Shown piece by piece: positions 3,222-19,942 of a stretch of DNA of 64,000 bases. The stretch is from Escherichia coli. GTDB taxonomy: Bacteria > Pseudomonadota > Gammaproteobacteria > Enterobacterales > Enterobacteriaceae. The DNA is taken from assembly GCF_050920415.1 (NCBI RefSeq), contig NZ_CP169309.1; one strand, 5' to 3'. How positions within the stretch are numbered: the first letter of the stretch is position 1; the number at the start of each line of letters is the position of its first letter. The position numbers were made by a program, and so were the translations under genes. The notes beneath the pieces were generated by a model. It saw only the letters and a program-made list of their open reading frames with translations, did not search any database and was not told where the DNA came from.

Positions 3222-4004
3222 ATGCGCACAAGCGACGTTACGCAACTGATGGATCTGGCGCTGGGGCTGTGGTTTCCCTTCGTGCGCATTATGGCGTTTC
3301 TGCGCTATGTGCCGGTGCTGGATAACAGCGCCCTGACCGTGCGCGTGCGGATTATTTTGTCGCTGGCGCTGGCAATCATCATCACGCCGTTGATCCCCCA
3401 TCCCATTCCCCACGACCTGCTTTCGCTCAATAGCCTGATCCTGACGGTGGAGCAAATTTTATGGGGCATGTTATTCGGGCTGATTTTTCAGTTCCTGTTT
3501 CTGGCGCTACAGCTGGCCGGGCAAATTCTCTCGTTCAATATGGGGATGAGCATGGCGGTGATGAACGACCCGAGCAGCGGCGCATCGACCACCGTACTGG
3601 CGGAGCTAATCAACGTTTACGCGATCCTGCTGTTTTTTGCCATGGACGGGCATCTGCTGCTGGTGAGCGTGTTGTACAAGGGCTTCACCTACTGGCCGAT
3701 TGGCAACGCCCTGCATCCGCAAACCCTGCGCACCATCGCGCTGGCCTTTAGCTGGGTGCTGGCGTCGGCATCGCTGCTTGCGCTGCCGACCACTTTTATC
3801 ATGCTGATTGTGCAGGGCTGCTTTGGCCTGCTCAACCGCATTGCGCCGCCGCTGAATCTCTTTTCACTTGGCTTTCCCATCAACATGCTGGCAGGGCTGG
3901 TCTGTTTTGCCACCCTGCTCTACAACCTGCCGGATCACTATCTGCATCTGGCGAATTTTGTGTTGCAGCAGCTCGACGCGCTGAAAGGTCACTATGGCGG
4001 ATAG
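3222..4004 (+). CDS. lfiR: Flagellar export apparatus protein, FliR-like
   Basis: ATG at 3222 (MRTSDVTQL...), polytopic membrane protein of about 260 aa in FliR position. Confidence 0.75.
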   Translation: MRTSDVTQLMDLALGLWFPFVRIMAFLRYVPVLDNSALTVRVRIILSLALAIIITPLIPHPIPHDLLSLNSLILTVEQILWGMLFGLIFQFLFLALQLAGQILSFNMGMSMAVMNDPSSGASTTVLAELINVYAILLFFAMDGHLLLVSVLYKGFTYWPIGNALHPQTLRTIALAFSWVLASASLLALPTTFIMLIVQGCFGLLNRIAPPLNLFSLGFPINMLAGLVCFATLLYNLPDHYLHLANFVLQQLDALKGHYGG

Positions 4005-10732: not shown

Positions 10733-11311
10733 TTACTTAACCATCTCTTTTTCAATTAACTGGATCAGGATATGGATCACTTTAATGTGGATCTCCTGAA
10801 TGCGGTCGGCATAACCAAAGTGCGGAACGCGAATTTCGATATCCGCCGCGCCAGCCATTTTGCCGCCGTCTTTACCCGTCAGGGTGATCACTTTCATCCC
10901 CTTCTCACGCGCCGCCGAGATCGCTTTGATCACGTTTGCAGAGTTACCAGAGGTGGAGATCCCCAGCAATACATCGCCTTCGCGACCTACCGCTTCAACG
11001 TAGCGGGAGAAAATATCATTGAAACCGAAATCATTACCGACGCAGGAAATATGACTAACGTCAGAAATAGCAATCGCCGGATAGCCCGGACGGTTTTCAC
11101 GGTAGCGCCCCGTCAACTCTTCGGCAAAGTGCATGGCGTCGCAATGGGAACCGCCATTACCGCAGGAAAGCACCTTACCACCGGCTTTAAAGCTATCTGC
11201 TAACAGGACCGCCGCGCGCTGAATGGCGTGAATATTGGCGTCATCTTTTAAAAAGTTAGCCAGCGTTTCCGCCGCTTCGTTCAGTTCGTTACGAATAAGA
11301 TCCTGGTACAT
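10733..11311 (-). CDS. gmhA: D-sedoheptulose-7-phosphate isomerase
   Basis: [17 protein letters not shown]... 192 aa SIS-domain protein. Confidence 0.95.
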
Positions 11312-11550
11312 GAGGATATCCTTCAGCATAAATGTAATAGACAAAATGCAGTGTACCGGATACCGCCAAAAGCGAGAAGTACGGGCAGGTGCGATGACCA
11401 GGACTTTTTGACCTGAAGTGCGGATAAAAACAGCAACAATGTGAGCTTTGTTGTAATTATATTGTAAACACATTGCTAAATGTTTTTACATCCACTACAA
11501 CCATATCATCACAAGTGGTCAGACCTCCTACAAGTAAGGGGCTTTTCGTT

Positions 11551-13995
11551 ATGATGATTTTGAGTATTCTCGCTACGGTTGTCCTGCTCGGCGCGTTGTT
11601 CTATCACCGCGTGAGCTTATTTATCAGCAGTCTGATTTTGCTCGCCTGGACAGCCGCCCTCGGCGTCGCTGGTCTGTGGTCGGCGTGGGTACTGGTGCCT
11701 CTGGCCATTATCCTCGTACCGTTTAACTTTGCGCCTATGCGTAAGTCGATGATTTCTGCGCCGGTATTTCGTGGATTCCGTAAGGTGATGCCACCGATGT
11801 CACGCACTGAAAAAGAAGCGATTGATGCAGGCACTACCTGGTGGGAAGGCGACTTGTTCCAGGGTAAGCCGGACTGGAAAAAGCTGCATAACTATCCGCA
11901 GCCGCGCCTGACCGCAGAAGAGCAAGCGTTTCTCGACGGCCCGGTAGAAGAAGCCTGCCGGATGGCGAATGATTTCCAGATTACTCATGAGCTGGCTGAT
12001 TTGCCGCCGGAGCTGTGGGCGTACCTTAAAGAGCATCGCTTCTTCGCGATGATCATCAAAAAAGAGTACGGCGGGCTGGAGTTCTCGGCTTATGCCCAAT
12101 CTCGTGTGCTGCAAAAACTCTCCGGCGTGAGCGGGATCCTGGCGATTACCGTCGGCGTGCCGAACTCATTAGGCCCGGGCGAGCTGCTGCAACATTACGG
12201 CACTGACGAGCAGAAAAATCACTATCTGCCGCGTCTGGCGCGTGGTCAGGAGCTCCCTTGCTTTGCACTGACCAGCCCGGAAGCGGGTTCCGATGCGGGC
12301 GCGATTCCGGATACCGGGATTGTCTGCATGGGTGAATGGCAGGGCCAGCAGGTGCTGGGGATGCGACTGACCTGGAACAAACGCTACATTACGCTCGCGC
12401 CAATTGCGACCGTGCTTGGGCTGGCGTTTAAACTTTCCGACCCGGAAAAACTGCTGGGTGGCGCAGAAGATTTAGGCATTACCTGTGCACTTATCCCGAC
12501 CACCACGCCAGGCGTGGAAATTGGTCGTCGCCACTTCCCGCTGAACGTACCGTTCCAGAACGGACCGACGCGAGGTAAAGATGTCTTCGTACCGATCGAC
12601 TACATTATCGGCGGACCAAAAATGGCCGGGCAAGGCTGGCGGATGCTGGTGGAGTGTCTCTCCGTGGGCCGCGGCATCACCCTACCTTCCAACTCAACCG
12701 GCGGCGTGAAATCGGTAGCACTGGCAACGGGCGCGTATGCGCACATTCGCCGTCAGTTCAAAATCTCTATCGGTAAGATGGAAGGGATTGAAGAGCCGCT
12801 GGCGCGTATTGCCGGTAATGCCTACGTGATGGATGCTGCGGCATCGCTGATTACCTACGGCATTATGCTCGGTGAAAAACCTGCCGTGCTGTCGGCTATC
12901 GTTAAGTATCACTGTACCCACCGCGGGCAGCAGTCGATTATTGATGCGATGGATATCACCGGGGGCAAAGGCATTATGCTCGGGCAAAGCAACTTCCTGG
13001 CCCGTGCTTACCAGGGCGCACCGATTGCCATCACCGTTGAAGGGGCCAACATTCTGACCCGCAGCATGATGATCTTCGGTCAGGGAGCGATTCGTTGCCA
13101 TCCGTACGTGCTGGAAGAGATGGAAGCGGCGAAGAACAATGACGTTAACGCATTCGATAAACTGCTATTCAAACATATCGGCCACGTCTGCAGTAACAAA
13201 GTTCGCAGCTTCTGGCTGGGCCTGACGCGCGGTTTAACCAGCAGCACACCAACCGGCGATGCCACTAAACGTTATTATCAGCACCTGAACCGCCTGAGTG
13301 CCAACCTCGCCCTGCTTTCTGATGTGTCGATGGCGGTGTTGGGCGGCAGCCTGAAACGTCGCGAACGCATCTCGGCACGTCTGGGGGATATTTTAAGCCA
13401 GCTTTACCTCGCCTCTGCCGTTCTGAAGCGTTATGACGACGAAGGCCGTAATGAAGCCGATCTGCCGCTGGTGCACTGGGGCGTACAGGATGCGCTGTAT
13501 CAGGCTGAACAGGCGATGGATGATTTACTGCAAAACTTCCCGAACCGCGTGGTTGCCGGGCTGCTGAATGTGGTGATCTTCCCGACCGGACGCCATTATC
13601 TGGCACCGTCTGACAAGCTGGATCATAAGGTGGCGAAGATTTTACAAGTGCCTAACGCCACCCGTTCACGTATTGGTCGCGGTCAGTACCTGACGCCGAG
13701 CGAGCATAACCCGGTTGGTTTACTGGAAGAGGCGCTGGTGGATGTGATTGCCGCCGACCCAATTCATCAGCGGATCTGTAAAGATCTGGGTAAAAACCTG
13801 CCGTTTACCCGTCTGGATGAACTGGCGCATAACGCGCTGGCGAAGGGGCTGATTGATAAAGATGAAGCCGCTATTCTGGTGAAAGCTGAAGAGAGTCGTC
13901 TGCGCAGTATTAACGTTGATGACTTTGATCCGGAAGAGCTGGCGACGAAGCCGGTAAAGTTGCCGGAGAAAGTGCGGAAAGTTGAAGCCGCGTAA
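11551..13995 (+). CDS. fadE: Acyl-CoA dehydrogenase FadE
   Basis: ATG 11551 ([14 protein letters not shown]...); about 814 aa with N-terminal TM segment and ACAD domain. Confidence 0.95.
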
Positions 13996-14001
13996 TTGAA
14001 T

Positions 14002-14028
14002 AACGGAGCCGAAAGGCTCCGTTTCTTT
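14002..14028. terminator. Rho-independent terminator between convergent fadE and ivy
   Basis: cggagcc-gaaa-ggctccg hairpin followed by T-rich run. Confidence 0.6.
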
Positions 14029-14037
14029 ATCCGCTAA

Positions 14038-14511
14038 TTATTTAAAATTAAAGCCATCCGGATGGTTTTCCAGGCTGCCGGTCAACGCCGCGAATAGCAC
14101 CGTTTTACCATCAATCGAAAGCGCATCATTCACATTCAACCAGGTGAGTTTCTCTTGCGAGGTTTTCTCATCAATGGTCGAGAACAGCCCCGTCATCTGA
14201 TTAGATTTCTCGGACCACATCACAGCGATACGTTGCGAGCCACAGTCATGCGGTTTGCACGCGCTCATCACCTGATACGTCTCATCTCCCAATGTCACGG
14301 TTTGTGCGGGGGTATAAGTACCGCCTTTCATCACCCAGGCTGGCAGCTTATGCCCTTGCACCATCTGACTAAATGCAGCGTTGGTGGTTTCGCCCTTTGC
14401 AAGGCTGCTAATGGTTAAATCATCCTGCGCCATTGCACTGGTGGCGATGACCAGAGCGGCGACTGTTGTTATTGCCTTAAACATCATTCCTCCCGAGCTT
14501 ATCCTGCCCAT
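14038..14511 (-). CDS. ivy: Inhibitor of vertebrate C-type lysozyme (Ivy)
   Basis: 157 aa, signal peptide, ...CKPHDCG... loop motif characteristic of Ivy. Confidence 0.9.
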   Translation of the reverse strand: MGRISSGGMMFKAITTVAALVIATSAMAQDDLTISSLAKGETTNAAFSQMVQGHKLPAWVMKGGTYTPAQTVTLGDETYQVMSACKPHDCGSQRIAVMWSEKSNQMTGLFSTIDEKTSQEKLTWLNVNDALSIDGKTVLFAALTGSLENHPDGFNFK

Positions 14512-14664
14512 GTTATTAACCTCCTAAAGCCTGGCGACAACACGATAATTTGCAAATCAGATATTTCCAATATCAGCATTTGTTATCAATTTATTCTGCG
14601 CTAAGGCAACTGCCTGATAAGGTGTTAAAGTTATAAAACCCTTCGCATAAAGGAGTTGTACACC

Positions 14665-15435
14665 GTGCCTGGTTTGAAGATTACGCTTTTGCAGCAACCA
14701 CTGGTGTGGATGGATGGTCTTGCCAACCTGCGCCATTTTGATCGTCAACTGGAAGGTATTACCGGGCGCGATGTGATCGTTCTACCGGAGATGTTTACCA
14801 GCGGCTTTGCCATGGAAGCGGCAGCTTCGTCGCTAGCACAAGATGACGTAGTGAACTGGATGACAGCTAAAGCGCAGCAGTGCAATGCGCTGATTGCAGG
14901 CAGTGTTGCATTACAAACGGAGTCTGGTTCGGTTAACCGCTTTTTGCTGGTTGAGCCGGGCGGCACGGTACATTTTTATGATAAGCGTCATCTGTTCCGA
15001 ATGGCAGATGAGCATCTGCATTATAAAGCGGGCAATGCGCGAGTGATTGTGGAATGGCGCGGCTGGCGTATTTTGCCGCTGGTGTGCTACGACCTGCGTT
15101 TTCCGGTGTGGTCGCGCAATCTCAACGATTATGACCTCGCCATCTACGTCGCCAACTGGCCTGCCCCACGCTCTCTGCACTGGCAGGCATTGCTGACAGC
15201 CCGCGCGATTGAGAATCAGGCGTATGTGGCGGGATGCAATCGCGTCGGCAGCGATGGCAACGGCTGCCATTATCGCGGTGACAGCCGGGTGATTAATCCA
15301 CAGGGCGAGATTATCGCTACTGCCGACGCGCATCAGGCAACGCGCATTGATGCGGAGCTGTCGATGGCGGTGTTAAGGGAATATCGCGAAAAGTTTCCGG
15401 CATGGCGGGATGCGGATGAGTTTAGGTTGTGGTGA
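14665..15435 (+). CDS. yafV: Nitrilase-superfamily omega-amidase YafV
   Basis: GTG start at 14665 preceded by [16 protein letters not shown]...; 771 bp as in K-12. Confidence 0.9.
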
Positions 15436-15484
15436 GTGGGGGTTGTGTTTAGGGCCGGGGAGAGTTGGGGTATGACTACGAAAG

Positions 15485-15690
15485 CCCGCTCTCCTGCGAC
15501 CACTTTTATCATAGGAGTGTGGAAGTGCTTTTCCATCAATCGCGATGACGTCTTTGTCATCTGAAGAATGACATTCACGCATCCGGTTAATAAAGCATTC
15601 GTGAAATTATACTGAACGGATACAAGACATAACTCTAATTATGGTGCCGTGAACAGGATTACCATTTTCAAAATTACGATATTATTTGCA
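15485..15690 (-). mobile_element. Internal fragment of an H-repeat (ISAs1-family) transposase gene (yafF-like remnant)
   Basis: About 85% identical over about 185 bp to 17423-17610; encodes ...[17 protein letters not shown]... on minus strand. Confidence 0.7.
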
Positions 15691-15706
15691 GTAATTATGT
15701 TATTAA

Positions 15707-16219
15707 TCATTGTGATATTTCCATCTCTGTGATTAATACCGGATACGCATTTAATTGCAGAGTTTGCACGAAATTATCGCAGATAACTGGCAATAACAAT
15801 AACCCATCAGCCCGCTGCTGTAATACCTCCATTCGTTCTACTGATTCAACATTAACAACCAAACCAAGGGCATTTAGCGATTTAAGGATCTCCAGATGTT
15901 CACTCATCCAGCGCAGAGAAAAAGGATCATCACCAATTATAAAAACAGGCCCCCAGCCGGTTAATAACTGGCGTTTCATTACGGAACCAGGATGAAGTCG
16001 AGTACATATTACAGGAAATACCCCCTGTTGCGATGGTTCCGATGATGTGGATAATTCAGAAATATTTTCCATTGTTAGTGAAGAATTAACATCCATTAAT
16101 AATGGTGAAACAACCTCACTTTCCTTGCTAGTAATGGCTGCACTAATCTGAGAGGAAAATAACAATATTATTACGTATAAACTCATTTTTAACATAACAA
16201 ATTCAATCCGTTTATTCAT
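15707..16219 (-). CDS. Hypothetical secreted or membrane protein (N-terminal hydrophobic signal); may correspond to the K-12 yafU/ykfM region
   Basis: 170-aa ORF in low-GC DNA, MSLYVIILLFSSQISAA signal-like segment; no recognisable domain. Confidence 0.45.
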   Translation of the reverse strand: MNKRIEFVMLKMSLYVIILLFSSQISAAITSKESEVVSPLLMDVNSSLTMENISELSTSSEPSQQGVFPVICTRLHPGSVMKRQLLTGWGPVFIIGDDPFSLRWMSEHLEILKSLNALGLVVNVESVERMEVLQQRADGLLLLPVICDNFVQTLQLNAYPVLITEMEISQ

Positions 16220-16285
16220 GTTATAGAATAATGATGCTATAAATCATCATTAATGTTCAATTATTTAATCACACAGTTTAAAAAA

Positions 16286-16789
16286 TCATTGACCAATGTG
16301 AATTGGCAATGTACCACTCAAGTTAAAATCACTGAATATTTTATCAATTTCTCTTGCAGTTTCTATATATTTAACCTCTTTCGTACTTGCATTATAAATA
16401 GCCCAAGCCTCGGGATGGGATGTTCCACCAAACCTTACAAAAAAACTTGATTTCATATTATTATATAAATTAACATCAGGAAAAGGATCTTCTCCAAAAT
16501 TAGTAGTATTGAATAATGAAAGTTCGTATCGCTTAGAAAATTCTATTGGTAGGATAGCTTCACTGCCATCAATAGCATTCATCCAGAGTTTGTTACCATT
16601 ATATTCCAACAATAATCTCTGTTTTGCATGTGTTTTATCTCGTTCTTTAACGACAGCGAATACCTTTTTAACAACCTGCTGTGCGGATGGTCCTATTGTA
16701 TTACCAAAAGATGGCAACCCGATTTTGCCATAAACACTCTCCTGAATGAAATAAATATCCGTTTTATCGGCCTCGACAATATCTACCAT
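16286..16789 (-). CDS. Hypothetical cytoplasmic protein
   Basis: 167-aa ORF, AT-rich, no signal peptide, no recognisable motif. Confidence 0.4.
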   Translation of the reverse strand: MVDIVEADKTDIYFIQESVYGKIGLPSFGNTIGPSAQQVVKKVFAVVKERDKTHAKQRLLLEYNGNKLWMNAIDGSEAILPIEFSKRYELSLFNTTNFGEDPFPDVNLYNNMKSSFFVRFGGTSHPEAWAIYNASTKEVKYIETAREIDKIFSDFNLSGTLPIHIGQ

Positions 16790-17101
16790 TTATCCCTCCA
16801 AACAAGACCTGACTCCAGGACAAGAGCATAGTGTGTAGTAAACACATCATGCTCTTGCCCTGACCATTGAAATAACAACTTTCGTTTGTTTACTGTACGC
16901 TGTCTAAATAGCTGCGTGGAATAAAGTTGCACTTTTTATCATCCCTTGTAGAGCAAGATTACGAAAGCCCGCCCCCGCAAGGGCTGACGCGAGGTAGTCT
17001 CTGTCCGCAGCTGCTTTTCACATCTTACATCTTGCCCCTGCCTTGAGTATCTTATCTTTCGTTAAAATATTAATAGCGATCTTCCGTATCCCTGAAAATA
17101 A

Positions 17102-17781
17102 TTATGCTGCATTTCCTCTTCTTATTTTGAAGTCGTCTTTATTCATTACCACTTCCAGATGCCAGTGCAATTTATTCTCCACTTGCCAGTGATTTCGGTT
17201 CGCTGTGGCGAACTTCTCTGCGGTTAAATCAGCAGAAATGCTATAATATCTGACCGTCATTTCGGGATTTTTCTTTTGTTCTGCTATTATTGAGCGAAAT
17301 GAGACTGCCATGCATAATTTCTTCAGCCCTTTCCATTCAAACGTAAAATCAATAAATTCATCAGAGACATGCAAACAATATGAAGACGGATTTTAATGAC
17401 ATAAGTTGCTCCCTTGTGACGAGTTTTATCATAAGAGTGCCGGAGCGTTTTTCCATCAATTGCAATGACGTCTTTATCATCTGAAGAATGACATTCACGC
17501 ATCCGGTTAATAAAGCATTCGTGAAATTTTGCAGGACTGATACATGATACAACTCTGGCAATAGTATCGTGAACAGGAATACCATTTTCAAAATCACCAT
17601 ATTGCTTCAAAAAATCGAGATGAGTTTCCCCGAAATCCTCTATATCTTCCCAGCCTTCTGCACCCGAAATAACGGCGCAAATAGTCAACAGTAGAATATC
17701 CGATAATTTATGCTCCACTTTCCAGGCTTGTCTGTAATCGGGGATAATAGAAATATGTTCCATCAATTTTTTAAGTTCCAT
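17102..17781 (-). pseudogene. H-repeat (ISAs1-family) transposase pseudogene with internal deletion, frameshift and 3' truncation
   Basis: ORF 17323-17781 starts [28 protein letters not shown]...; ORF 17102-17374 carries ...[24 protein letters not shown]...; middle of protein missing. Confidence 0.8.
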
Positions 17782-17987
17782 TTTGTTCTCCTTAATTATG
17801 TAAGGAGTATTTGATCATGTATAAGCAATAAAAAACAGCTTCAGGTAATGAGGAATATCTCAATTTTTAAACATAAAATGCGAATTATTTAGTACAAAAA
17901 AGCAGCGTTAAGTGAGTAGGCCACCGGAACCTCCCCGACAGCCTCTCGCAGAACCGTACGTGAAACTCTCGCTTCATACGGCTCCCG

Positions 17988-18605
17988 TCAGGCAAACGCG
18001 CTTCCTGGTCCTGCTTTCCAGTGGGCAAACAACTCCGGCTTCTCTTTTGACAGCCTTTCCATTAGCTGACACGCCTTCGTCTTTCTATACCGCAGGGTTT
18101 TATATTTCTTTCTCGCCCACGCAATCAGCGTCAGATTAATATATCTGCATACTTTCTTCATCGCTGATTTGTGGTATCTCGCGTAATAATTCAGCCACCC
18201 CGATATTATCGGATTCAGCCACTTCGCAATATCTTCGAGACTCATCTCCACCCTGCGTCTGATCCACAGTTTCCTGAGTTTTCCAATCATGCCTTTCTGC
18301 GCACGGTTACTCGCCGCCGGGCTGAAACTCGTAAAGAGGTTTCCCCGCCGGTGGTTACGTGCTCTTCGCGCTCTGAACGTATACCCCAGAAAATCAAACT
18401 GCACTGTTTCATGGTTCGCCTGTCGTTCGCTGTCTTTGCAGTAAACTACTTTCGTTTTCTCCGGATGTAATTCCAGTCCACATTCCTGAAAACGTTTTGC
18501 CAGCTTATTCAGTAATTCCTCTGCCTGTTGTTTACTGCCACAATGAATTAATCCATCATCTGCATAACGGCACAGGGAATTTCCGGATAATGTAACGTCA
18601 GCCAT
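17988..18605 (-). pseudogene. Group II intron reverse transcriptase/maturase, C-terminal fragment in a different frame
   Basis: Contains RYADDGLIHC active-site motif and maturase/X-domain-like tail; overlaps upstream fragment. Confidence 0.8.
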
Positions 18606-19504
18606 TTATCAAACACATAGTGCAGAAATAAATTCGCCAGTACCGGGCTGATGACTCCACCCTGTGGCGTACCTTTATTTCTTTCCTTCAGTGTTCCATC
18701 CGGCATCTGCACCGGCGCTGTCAGCCACCGGCGAATAGACAGTCTTACCCATTTATCCGCACAATGTTTATCTACTGCCCTGAGTAATAAATCGTGGGAG
18801 ATATTATCGAATAACCCTTTAATATCAAACTCAAGACACCAGTCGTATTGCCAGCAACGTTTTCTGGTGACTGCTATTGCATCCAGCGCTGATTTTCCAT
18901 GCCGGTATCCGTATGAATCATTCAGGAAATAACGCTCCACTAATGGTTCAAACGTTACCAGCACCGTCATCTGCGCTATTCGATCGCTTACTGTCGGTAT
19001 TCCTAAAAGTCTTTTGCTGCCATCCTTCTTCGGAATTTCCACCGCACGCACTGGCGGCGGCATCCAGCTTCCCGACGATAACCTGTTCCAGATTTTGTAC
19101 AGATTTCCTTTCAGATCCCGCTCAAAATCTTTCAGCGTCTGGTTATCCACTCCGGCAGCTCCGGCATTCGCCTTTATCCGCCGGTACGCTTCCACCACAT
19201 GCAATTTACTGACCTGAAACGGTTTTGTCTGTTCACACACAGCCTCCTCCTGCCTACAGTTGGGCTGTGATGCAGACTGCCCGACGCTGTCCCTTCGCTC
19301 CACGTTCATTACAAACGCTTCCTCACTACTACGAACAGCTCTGCCCCGGTTTCGCACATCGATACTCTCATACTCATAATTTCGGTTATTTGTATTTCTC
19401 TCTTGAAATTGCGACGACCGGTTCCCGTAGTTCCTGCAAAGAGCCTGATACAGCGTCATGCCTGCTATACACCGGACACCATTCACGCAGCATTCGGAAT
19501 TCAC
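18548..19504 (-). pseudogene. Group II intron reverse transcriptase/maturase, N-terminal fragment
   Basis: RT domain motifs (...GIPTVSDRIAQ..., ...GTPQGGVISPVLANLFL...); frame breaks before the YADD motif. Confidence 0.8.
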
Positions 19505-19843
19505 CCGTAAATTAATCCCGGCGGTATCACGAAACCTCCGGTTTTGATGTCACTTAGGACTAACGACGTTTCAACACAGGTTCGGGTTTACTCATCTCAC
19601 TGTATCTCACATAGGATCAGATCTCGTCTGATCGTTCCCCCTGCGCTCACTACCATGGCTCTTTACCACAGCAGCCGGGGTTGTTTGGGACCGACTTCCG
19701 ACAGCAGATCCCGGTGGGCCTGCCACCATCTCTTCACAAGCTTATGCTTATTACATGCAAAACGTCCCGTTTTGCATCTTTGTGCCTACGGCACACGATG
19801 ATCTTTCCCTGATTACTTGACCTTTCCCTGGGAGTACAGAGTG

Positions 19844-19890
19844 AAGTTTCCGGCATGGCGGGATGCGGATGGGTTTGAACTGGGGTGATT
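19844..19890 (+). repeat. Imperfect second copy of the yafV 3' end (41 of 47 nt identical to 15389-15435)
   Basis: gtgaagtttccggcatggcgggatgcggatgggtttgaactggggtga would encode [19 protein letters not shown], against [18 protein letters not shown] at the end of yafV. Confidence 0.7.
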
Positions 19891-19942
19891 AGGCACTACA
19901 TGTCTACATTTTCCCGGTCTCCAACCCCTCAATCTTATAAAC

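Follow-up and report, generated by a model that had tools for sequence, protein, structure and literature searches.

An orphan yafV 3' end, probably of Pseudocitrobacter type, at the border of the tle1 effector cassette of an Escherichia coli T6SS-1 cluster

A 64,000-nucleotide stretch of Escherichia coli DNA (the window) carries two yafV 3' ends as direct repeats, i.e., that of the intact resident gene (copy 1) and a displaced second one (copy 2) next to the tle1 effector cassette of the T6SS-1 cluster. Judging from sequence comparisons, copy 2 is very probably a non-functional, IS-truncated orphan of a Pseudocitrobacter-type yafV allele, the scar of a cassette exchange that marks a former yafV-tle1 junction. 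This relic is the exact border of the E. coli T6SS-1 tle1 effector cassette. It would moreover be rare direct evidence of cassette exchange between genera, as the cassette still has a fragment of a foreign housekeeping gene at its edge and is 97-99% identical in parts.

Features of this kind are well known, i.e., orphan remnants at cassette or island borders, T6SS and Rhs loci sculpted by IS elements, and mosaic flanking genes. The relic is useful mainly as a provenance marker and is otherwise an ordinary recombination and IS scar. For annotators, its yafV-like ORF fragment is no gene.

Two yafV 3' ends at one locus

The gene order in the window is fadE-ivy-yafV, followed by a 4.4-kb insert and the tle1 end of the T6SS-1 cluster, whose far limit is aspV (51593-51669). 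T6SS insertions at the tRNA gene aspV are already known and widespread in E. coli, and the window represents this same locus (PMC2808357). Judged by title and abstract, none of the 12 papers found by a literature search on yafV, aspV and type VI secretion seemed to deal with the yafV-proximal border, the duplication or the relic. The resident yafV (14665-15435, plus strand) codes for a 2-oxoglutaramate amidase ending in DADEFRLW-stop. It is intact (NCBIfam NF007757, E = 4e-164) and is annotated as yafV in the near-identical record NZ_CP169399.1. In the window aspV lies about 11 kb nearer to yafV than in NZ_CP169399.1, and the two sequences hence stem from different strains.

Copy 1, the functional yafV 3' end homologous to copy 2, spans 15377-15435 on the plus strand. 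Both copies contain the exact 28-nt core AAGTTTCCGGCATGGCGGGATGCGGATG, located at 15391-15418 and 19844-19871, respectively. An exact core of this length is beyond chance: with up to three mismatches allowed, it had only these two matches in the window and none in 100 shuffles. The preliminary description had thus rightly noticed an imperfect second yafV 3' end, although it placed it at 19844-19890 with 41 of 47 identical positions, a shift by two nucleotides. In register, the partner of 15389-15435 is 19842-19888 (offset 4453), and 39 of 47 positions agree. Homology becomes weaker leftward and extends to 19830/19831, giving 47 identities over the 59 positions of 15377-15435 versus 19830-19888. 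Copy 2 is hence an orphan 3' end of 58 nt (19831-19888, plus strand), or of 59 nt if G19830 is included, a base that it shares with an adjoining IS end. Its stop codon is 19886-19888 and its peptide tail reads DADGFELG-stop against DADEFRLW-stop in copy 1, both as originally read.

Sequence comparison delimits a yafV-tle1 spacer of 54 nt downstream of copy 2 (19889-19942), which is also present 3' of an intact yafV in Enterobacteriaceae bacterium FGI 57 and in E. coli ChlosBP-23-1. A scan of 19750-20050, i.e., the relic and its surroundings, gave no terminator or promoter consensus, and a regulatory role for the relic was dropped on these grounds.

At 15407-15409, copy 1 has CGG (Arg) in the window and in strain THO-008, as does copy 2. 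K-12 and NC101 have CAG (Gln) at the equivalent position, the state of most Enterobacteriaceae. The perfect 28-nt core is therefore strain-specific, being interrupted by CAG versus CGG in K-12 and NC101. The CGG in copy 1 could be due to gene conversion from copy 2 or to allelic variation.

Intact counterparts of copy 2 in another genus

We scanned species-representative genomes for YafV and obtained 80 loci, among which the last five to six yafV codons differ between genera. Over its whole length and ending exactly at the stop codon, copy 2 matches the yafV ends of P. faecalis and of FGI 57 at 56 of 59 positions each, compared with 47 of 59 for copy 1 of the window and 48 of 59 for K-12 yafV. 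Two sites upstream of the core separate E. coli from Pseudocitrobacter, and copy 2 has the Pseudocitrobacter state at both. The difference between 56 and 48 of 59 is a small count when taken alone, and the assignment to a Pseudocitrobacter-type allele draws mainly on the contiguous, high identity downstream of copy 2. P. faecalis genomes with the GFELG allele are island-free (yafV-aspV-dnaQ), the GFELG tail is therefore a property of the genus and not of the cassette. In the 80 yafV loci of other species, tblastn found no Tle1, no integrating conjugative element (ICE) protein and no homolog of a 167-aa hypothetical protein (hyp167) beside yafV; a T6SS-adjacent yafV is thus not general among species representatives.

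A metagenome scan with a back-translated 17-residue query returned one contig, AGFS01075944.1. This contig is 95% identical to P. faecalis over fadE-ivy-yafV and contains an intact yafV, the same spacer (TTAGGCACTACATGTCTACATTTTCCCG...) and then tle1. The complete genome of FGI 57 (CP003938.1; PMC3587947) codes for exactly the same YafV protein. The order in FGI 57 is fadE-ivy-yafV-tle1-DUF3304-DUF3304-DUF4123-vgrG-hcp-tssB-tssC, with an intact yafV ending in GFELG-stop, the same 54-nt spacer and a convergent tle1. An intact counterpart of copy 2, contiguous with the same flanking DNA, hence exists in FGI 57 and in AGFS01075944.1. The uninterrupted yafV-54 nt-tle1 arrangement in both bears out the earlier suggestion that the end of copy 2 marks a former yafV-island junction.

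In the window, copy 2 travels with the tle1 effector cassette (19943-25447, minus strand), which comprises tle1, DUF3304 immunity-like genes, a DUF4123 adaptor and the C-terminal part of vgrG. FGI 57 and the window are 80-83% identical over the housekeeping genes yafJ-lpcA-fadE-ivy-yafV. Identity is 90.4% over 5649 nt from copy 2 to the C-terminal part of vgrG (window 19830-25447), 78.5% over the N-terminal part of vgrG with hcp, and 70.6% over tssB-tssC. The rise to 90.4% begins exactly at window position 19830. Between NC101 and FGI 57, 300-nt windows in tle1 and in the DUF4123/vgrG-C region even reach 97-99%. From the identity jump and these highly similar windows, we conclude that the tle1 cassette was exchanged horizontally as a block, with the yafV sliver as its left end in E. 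coli. Relative to FGI 57, there is also a 2.1-kb gap inside vgrG (window 25448-27569), which coincides with an IS21 of NZ_CP169399.1 (istA frameshifted, istB) and with the drop from 90% to 78%.

These comparisons leave hardly any room for a local duplication of the E. coli yafV 3' end, either in tandem or as an IS target duplication, followed by drift. Two direct repeats at one locus flanked by IS elements would fit such an origin. Copy 2, however, matches the yafV of another genus at 56/59 and the copy 1 sequences of E. coli at no more than 47-48/59, and the DNA downstream of it directly continues an intact yafV in FGI 57, which refutes the duplication. IS target duplications are typically shorter than about 15 bp. 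The repeats here cover 59 imperfect nucleotides (47/59), far in excess of this, and lie 4.4 kb apart across several elements; no target duplication flanks the IS.

The ISAs1 border, the insert and the distribution of the relic

Two nested ISAs1 right termini (19797-19830, minus strand) form the left edge of copy 2. They read GATGATCTTTCCCTG at 19797-19811 and ATTACTTGACCTTTCCCTG at 19812-19830, and were assigned by comparison with the ISEc1 ends of THO-008 and the IS end of strain 33F4. The last IS base, G19830, directly adjoins copy 2. The two termini stand back to back; an ISEc1-type end comes first, and the final 19 nt of a terminus of an older variant follow. At this junction, strain 33F4 carries only one IS end, which is complete and of the older variant. 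In every carrier, including 33F4, the ISAs1 terminus (...CTTTCCCTG) is the left edge of copy 2, and in every genome found the joint 5' of copy 2 is thus occupied by an ISAs1 terminus. No target-site duplication was found around the IS beside copy 2, whose left and right flanks are unrelated; this is compatible with either of the two joining routes considered below.

The segment between the copies begins with a spacer of about 30 nt and a first ISAs1/H-repeat remnant (15436-15690, minus strand), with the IS left end near 15467 and an annotated pseudogene at 15487-15681. The region of this remnant forms a 196-nt repeat with 17408-17603, 84% identical in the window. A gene for a PFL_4695-family 'integrating conjugative element' protein follows (15707-16219, minus strand; TIGR03765, E = 2.1e-35), and then the hyp167 gene (16286-16789, minus strand), whose 167-aa product falls outside known families, with no match in Pfam or NCBIfam. 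These two minus-strand genes (15707-16789) are stranded amid two ISAs1 remnants. The second remnant is an ISAs1-family pseudogene with an internal deletion (16951-17910, minus strand; aligned to intact ISEc1 from THO-008). A group II intron splits this element in the terminal region, 15 nt from the IS end (17911-19796, minus strand; Rfam RF00029 at 17911-17986 and RF01999 at 19610-19727). The intron begins with GTGTG at 19796-19792, and its exon junctions are ...GATCATC/GTGTG... and .../TAACGCTGC. It is missing from NC101, where the arrangement is otherwise the same, and is about 71% identical to an intron that splits another ISAs1 copy in THO-008. Its RT/maturase ORF is frameshifted at 18574, where a one-base deletion gives CACAGGG versus CACCAGGG in the otherwise identical NZ_CP169399.1. 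The ORF is open over 520 codons in that record and divided into 333 and 205 codons in the window; the deletion may be either a real frameshift or a sequencing error. The bracketed segment hence has the content that was initially described, i.e., ISAs1/H-repeat remnants, two small genes and a group II intron, with the amendment that one of the two genes called hypothetical codes for the PFL_4695-family ICE protein.

In at least 540 E. coli genomes, yafV has the ISAs1-ICE-hyp-ISAs1 block beside it, not necessarily together with tle1. In K-12, copy 1 is followed by yafF, a fusion of the two ISAs1 fragments that flank the ICE-hyp block here, and K-12 has no other homology to the insert. K-12 positions 3691-3879 (locus L004) correspond to window positions 15436-15491 and 16960-17237. 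K-12 therefore appears to have lost the ICE-hyp block by recombination between the 196-nt repeats. The comparison with K-12 yafF-yafU-ykfM proposed in the preliminary description was thus fruitful for yafF; yafU and ykfM turned out to be unrelated to the two small genes of the window.

E. albertii (locus L007) has a yafV tail of the copy-1 type (GFRLL-stop), which the same spacer joins to an ISAs1 remnant at a junction orthologous to that of the window. The shared spacer reads GTGGGGGTTATGTTTAG, with the variable form GTGGGGGTT(A/G)TGTTTAG. The copy-1 tail, the spacer and the ISAs1 remnant are therefore old in Escherichia, i.e., they are resident and were not brought in by an element. Beyond the ISAs1 remnant beside yafV, the E. 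albertii locus (10765-17212) encodes a PAAR-Rhs effector of 1424 aa and VgrG; the effector modules at the yafV-proximal T6SS-1 end thus differ across Escherichia species. H-repeat/ISAs1 elements are classic companions of Rhs loci.

About 69 of 5,426 complete E. coli genomes contain copy 2 with this tle1 flank, all of them at the yafV locus. The truncation point is identical in all 69 carriers. With the FGI 57 junction as query, no longer relic was matched in the 5,426 E. coli genomes, all carriers starting at the same base. Genomes with other effector modules, e.g., THO-008, are without copy 2. The relic is hence linked to the cassette across the population.

In a single one of the 5,426 E. 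coli genomes, ChlosBP-23-1, tle1 directly follows yafV, a state that the preliminary description had recommended looking for. The full-length yafV of this strain is a hybrid. It is of E. coli type up to ...GAGAAAAG and has, from ...GGCGGG on, the tail of E. coli copy 2, with GAA and not the GAG of Pseudocitrobacter; the spacer is of E. coli type as well. With copy-1 bases upstream and copy-2 bases downstream, the crossover lies inside the 16-nt stretch AAGTTTCCGGCATGGC. The yafV-tle1 fusion in ChlosBP-23-1 is, on this sequence pattern, most simply read as a deletion between the two copies. The only effect seen for the non-functional relic is thus that the two copies, as short direct repeats, allow a rare deletion that fuses yafV to tle1.

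With the border, the insert and the fusion strain at hand, we could also assess whether the two copies are attachment sites (attL/attR). An element with a yafV-like replacement 3' end would then have integrated at the 28-nt core, 15436-19830 would be its decayed remains, and the free attP-like joint would read GGAGTACAGAGTG-core-AGTTTAGGTTGTGGTGA. Elements of this kind exist: e14 and phage 21 integrate at icd and bring a replacement 3' end. As in these cases, the yafV locus has a functional end and, a few kb downstream in direct orientation, a displaced end that is similar but not identical. Such an integration would account for the direct orientation of the repeats and for arms that diverge to the left and right of a perfect 28-nt core; the insert also contains one gene from an ICE-associated family, and ChlosBP-23-1 could be taken as an 'empty site' genome. 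Unlike at icd, however, a recombinase is lacking, the repeats do not coincide with element boundaries, an IS-cut, contiguous foreign allele forms the displaced copy, and the functional end is old and resident. The annotation of NZ_CP169399.1, the near-identical record, has no integrase from yafV to aspV and lists, between the copies, only ltrA, ISAs1 pseudogenes and genes for the PFL_4695 protein and one hypothetical protein. Copy 2 is bordered on its left by an IS end and not by an element arm. Copy 2 is moreover of Pseudocitrobacter type on both sides of the core (56/59), hence there is no P/B chimera. E. albertii has the tail type, spacer and ISAs1 remnant that the element would have brought, the perfect core is strain-specific (CAG versus CGG in K-12 and NC101), and the empty-site genome carries bases specific for E. 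coli copy 2, as fits a deletion. An attachment-site origin is therefore highly improbable. Four mismatches among the 13 positions upstream of the core had been considered as a P-arm and were rejected, because the same bases occur in ordinary P. faecalis and FGI 57 yafV. A tRNA island would be expected to carry part of the aspV 3' end as a direct repeat, but a search of 15300-20100 that allowed up to four mismatches per 20-30 nt yielded none.

Of the two mechanisms suggested in the preliminary description, we hence retain the exchange scar. The other, integration of an element at the 3' end of yafV with replacement of that end by one of its own, is given up in view of the missing integrase, the IS edge, the contiguous foreign allele and the tail shared with E. 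albertii.

Origin of the relic and direction of transfer

As the source of copy 2, we envisage a GFELG-type yafV followed by 54 nt and a convergent tle1, located at the tle1 end of a T6SS cluster. The tle1-tli-DUF4123-vgrG-C cassette would have been swapped horizontally between a Pseudocitrobacter-like lineage and E. coli, dragging the yafV sliver along. The remainder of the foreign yafV is absent from E. coli, the break lying exactly at the ISAs1/H-repeat terminus, and an IS-mediated event may have made or trimmed the joint. ISAs1 copies could have recombined with each other, the swap then using ISAs1 and vgrG as homology arms. Alternatively, an illegitimate insertion may have been followed by an ISAs1 adjacent deletion. 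The resident Escherichia yafV was kept intact together with its EFRLW tail, spacer and ISAs1 remnant, and the original joint is now overwritten by ISAs1.

Foreign DNA is known to enter genomes with homology on one side only. In homology-facilitated illegitimate recombination, as found in Acinetobacter and pneumococcus, and in the flank-mediated transfer of E. coli genomic islands, it likewise is anchored on one side (here this would be vgrG or ISAs1) and brings a piece of a donor core gene. In contrast to homology-facilitated illegitimate recombination, the illegitimate joint is not visible here, as the ISAs1 terminus is now the boundary. The proposed scar also resembles the orphan C-terminal tips of Rhs and CdiA and the leftovers of sequentially displaced V. 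cholerae T6SS effector-immunity modules, where recombination installs an incoming cassette beside old material. In these systems, too, the displaced leftovers are 5'-truncated and non-functional and share a short conserved stretch with the functional gene. Copy 2 differs from them in being a sliver of a flanking housekeeping gene and not a toxin tip or an immunity gene. Unlike the Rhs and CdiA tips, it would record the former chromosomal neighbor of the cassette in another genus.

The yafV gene itself is a mosaic. Over nt 621-754 (window 15285-15418), Pseudocitrobacter is 87-93% identical to E. coli, as compared with 77% over nt 121-620; other genera show 72-79% in both stretches. Pseudocitrobacter nt 621-754 cluster with E. 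coli and with the island-free Escherichia sp. L006 (86-93%), and the identity between E. coli and L006 is unchanged across yafV. This pattern indicates an older recombination between genera within yafV that apparently ended at the conserved core. It probably ran from Escherichia to Pseudocitrobacter, which would make the junction a recombination site more than once.

For the cassette, we lean towards transfer from a Pseudocitrobacter-like lineage to E. coli. The GFELG tail occurs in island-free P. faecalis, which is about 5% diverged from FGI 57, whereas FGI 57 and E. coli differ by just 1-3% in parts of the cassette. The similarity in nt 621-754 speaks against this direction; an older exchange from Escherichia to Pseudocitrobacter is plausible, and GFELG could originally have been an Escherichia allele. 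Our Pseudocitrobacter sample comprises two lineages, and the donor may also have been a third party.

Taken further, the nt 621-754 similarity leads to the opposite history. Copy 2 would then be the vertically inherited end of a resident Escherichia yafV disrupted by ISAs1, a different Escherichia haplotype would have supplied, by recombination, the intact EFRLW gene with the ISAs1-ICE-hyp block, and Pseudocitrobacter would have obtained the 3' end and the cassette from Escherichia. This history needs just one IS insertion and homologous recombination, and the clustering of nt 621-754 together with the constant E. coli-L006 identity points to an Escherichia source of the segment. We nevertheless consider it unlikely. 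With GFELG in island-free P. faecalis at about 5% from FGI 57, versus 97-99% identity of cassette parts between FGI 57 and NC101, the tail would predate the recent cassette exchange within Pseudocitrobacter. Moreover, among the 5,426 E. coli genomes and two other Escherichia species, the recombinant ChlosBP-23-1 is the only one with an intact GFELG-type yafV.

Under the exchange from a Pseudocitrobacter-like donor, the conserved KFPAW(Q/R)DAD stretch near the yafV stop codon may be a recurrent crossover anchor where genera exchange T6SS effector cassettes in the yafV-aspV hotspot, and each tail type (FRLW, GFELG, EFKLH) may tag the island type adjoining it. The orphan would then be a molecular fossil that identifies the recent donor of the E. 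coli tle1-tli-DUF4123-vgrG-C cassette as a Pseudocitrobacter-like bacterium, relatives of which are known from the fungus gardens of leaf-cutter ants. We regard the arguments for and against this extended proposal as evenly balanced.

The yafV-aspV interval is a recombination hotspot with a mosaic yafV 3' end. In the island-free state, found in Escherichia sp. L006, P. faecalis and ESNIH1, aspV lies 70-110 nt 3' of yafV. We therefore conclude that yafV-aspV is the ancestral state and that islands were inserted between the two genes. In the scanned loci of an Escherichia species representative and P. faecalis, nothing lies between yafV and aspV, and the island-free intervals are at 10771-10947 in L006 and 10771-10918 in L020, with the same state also in L093.
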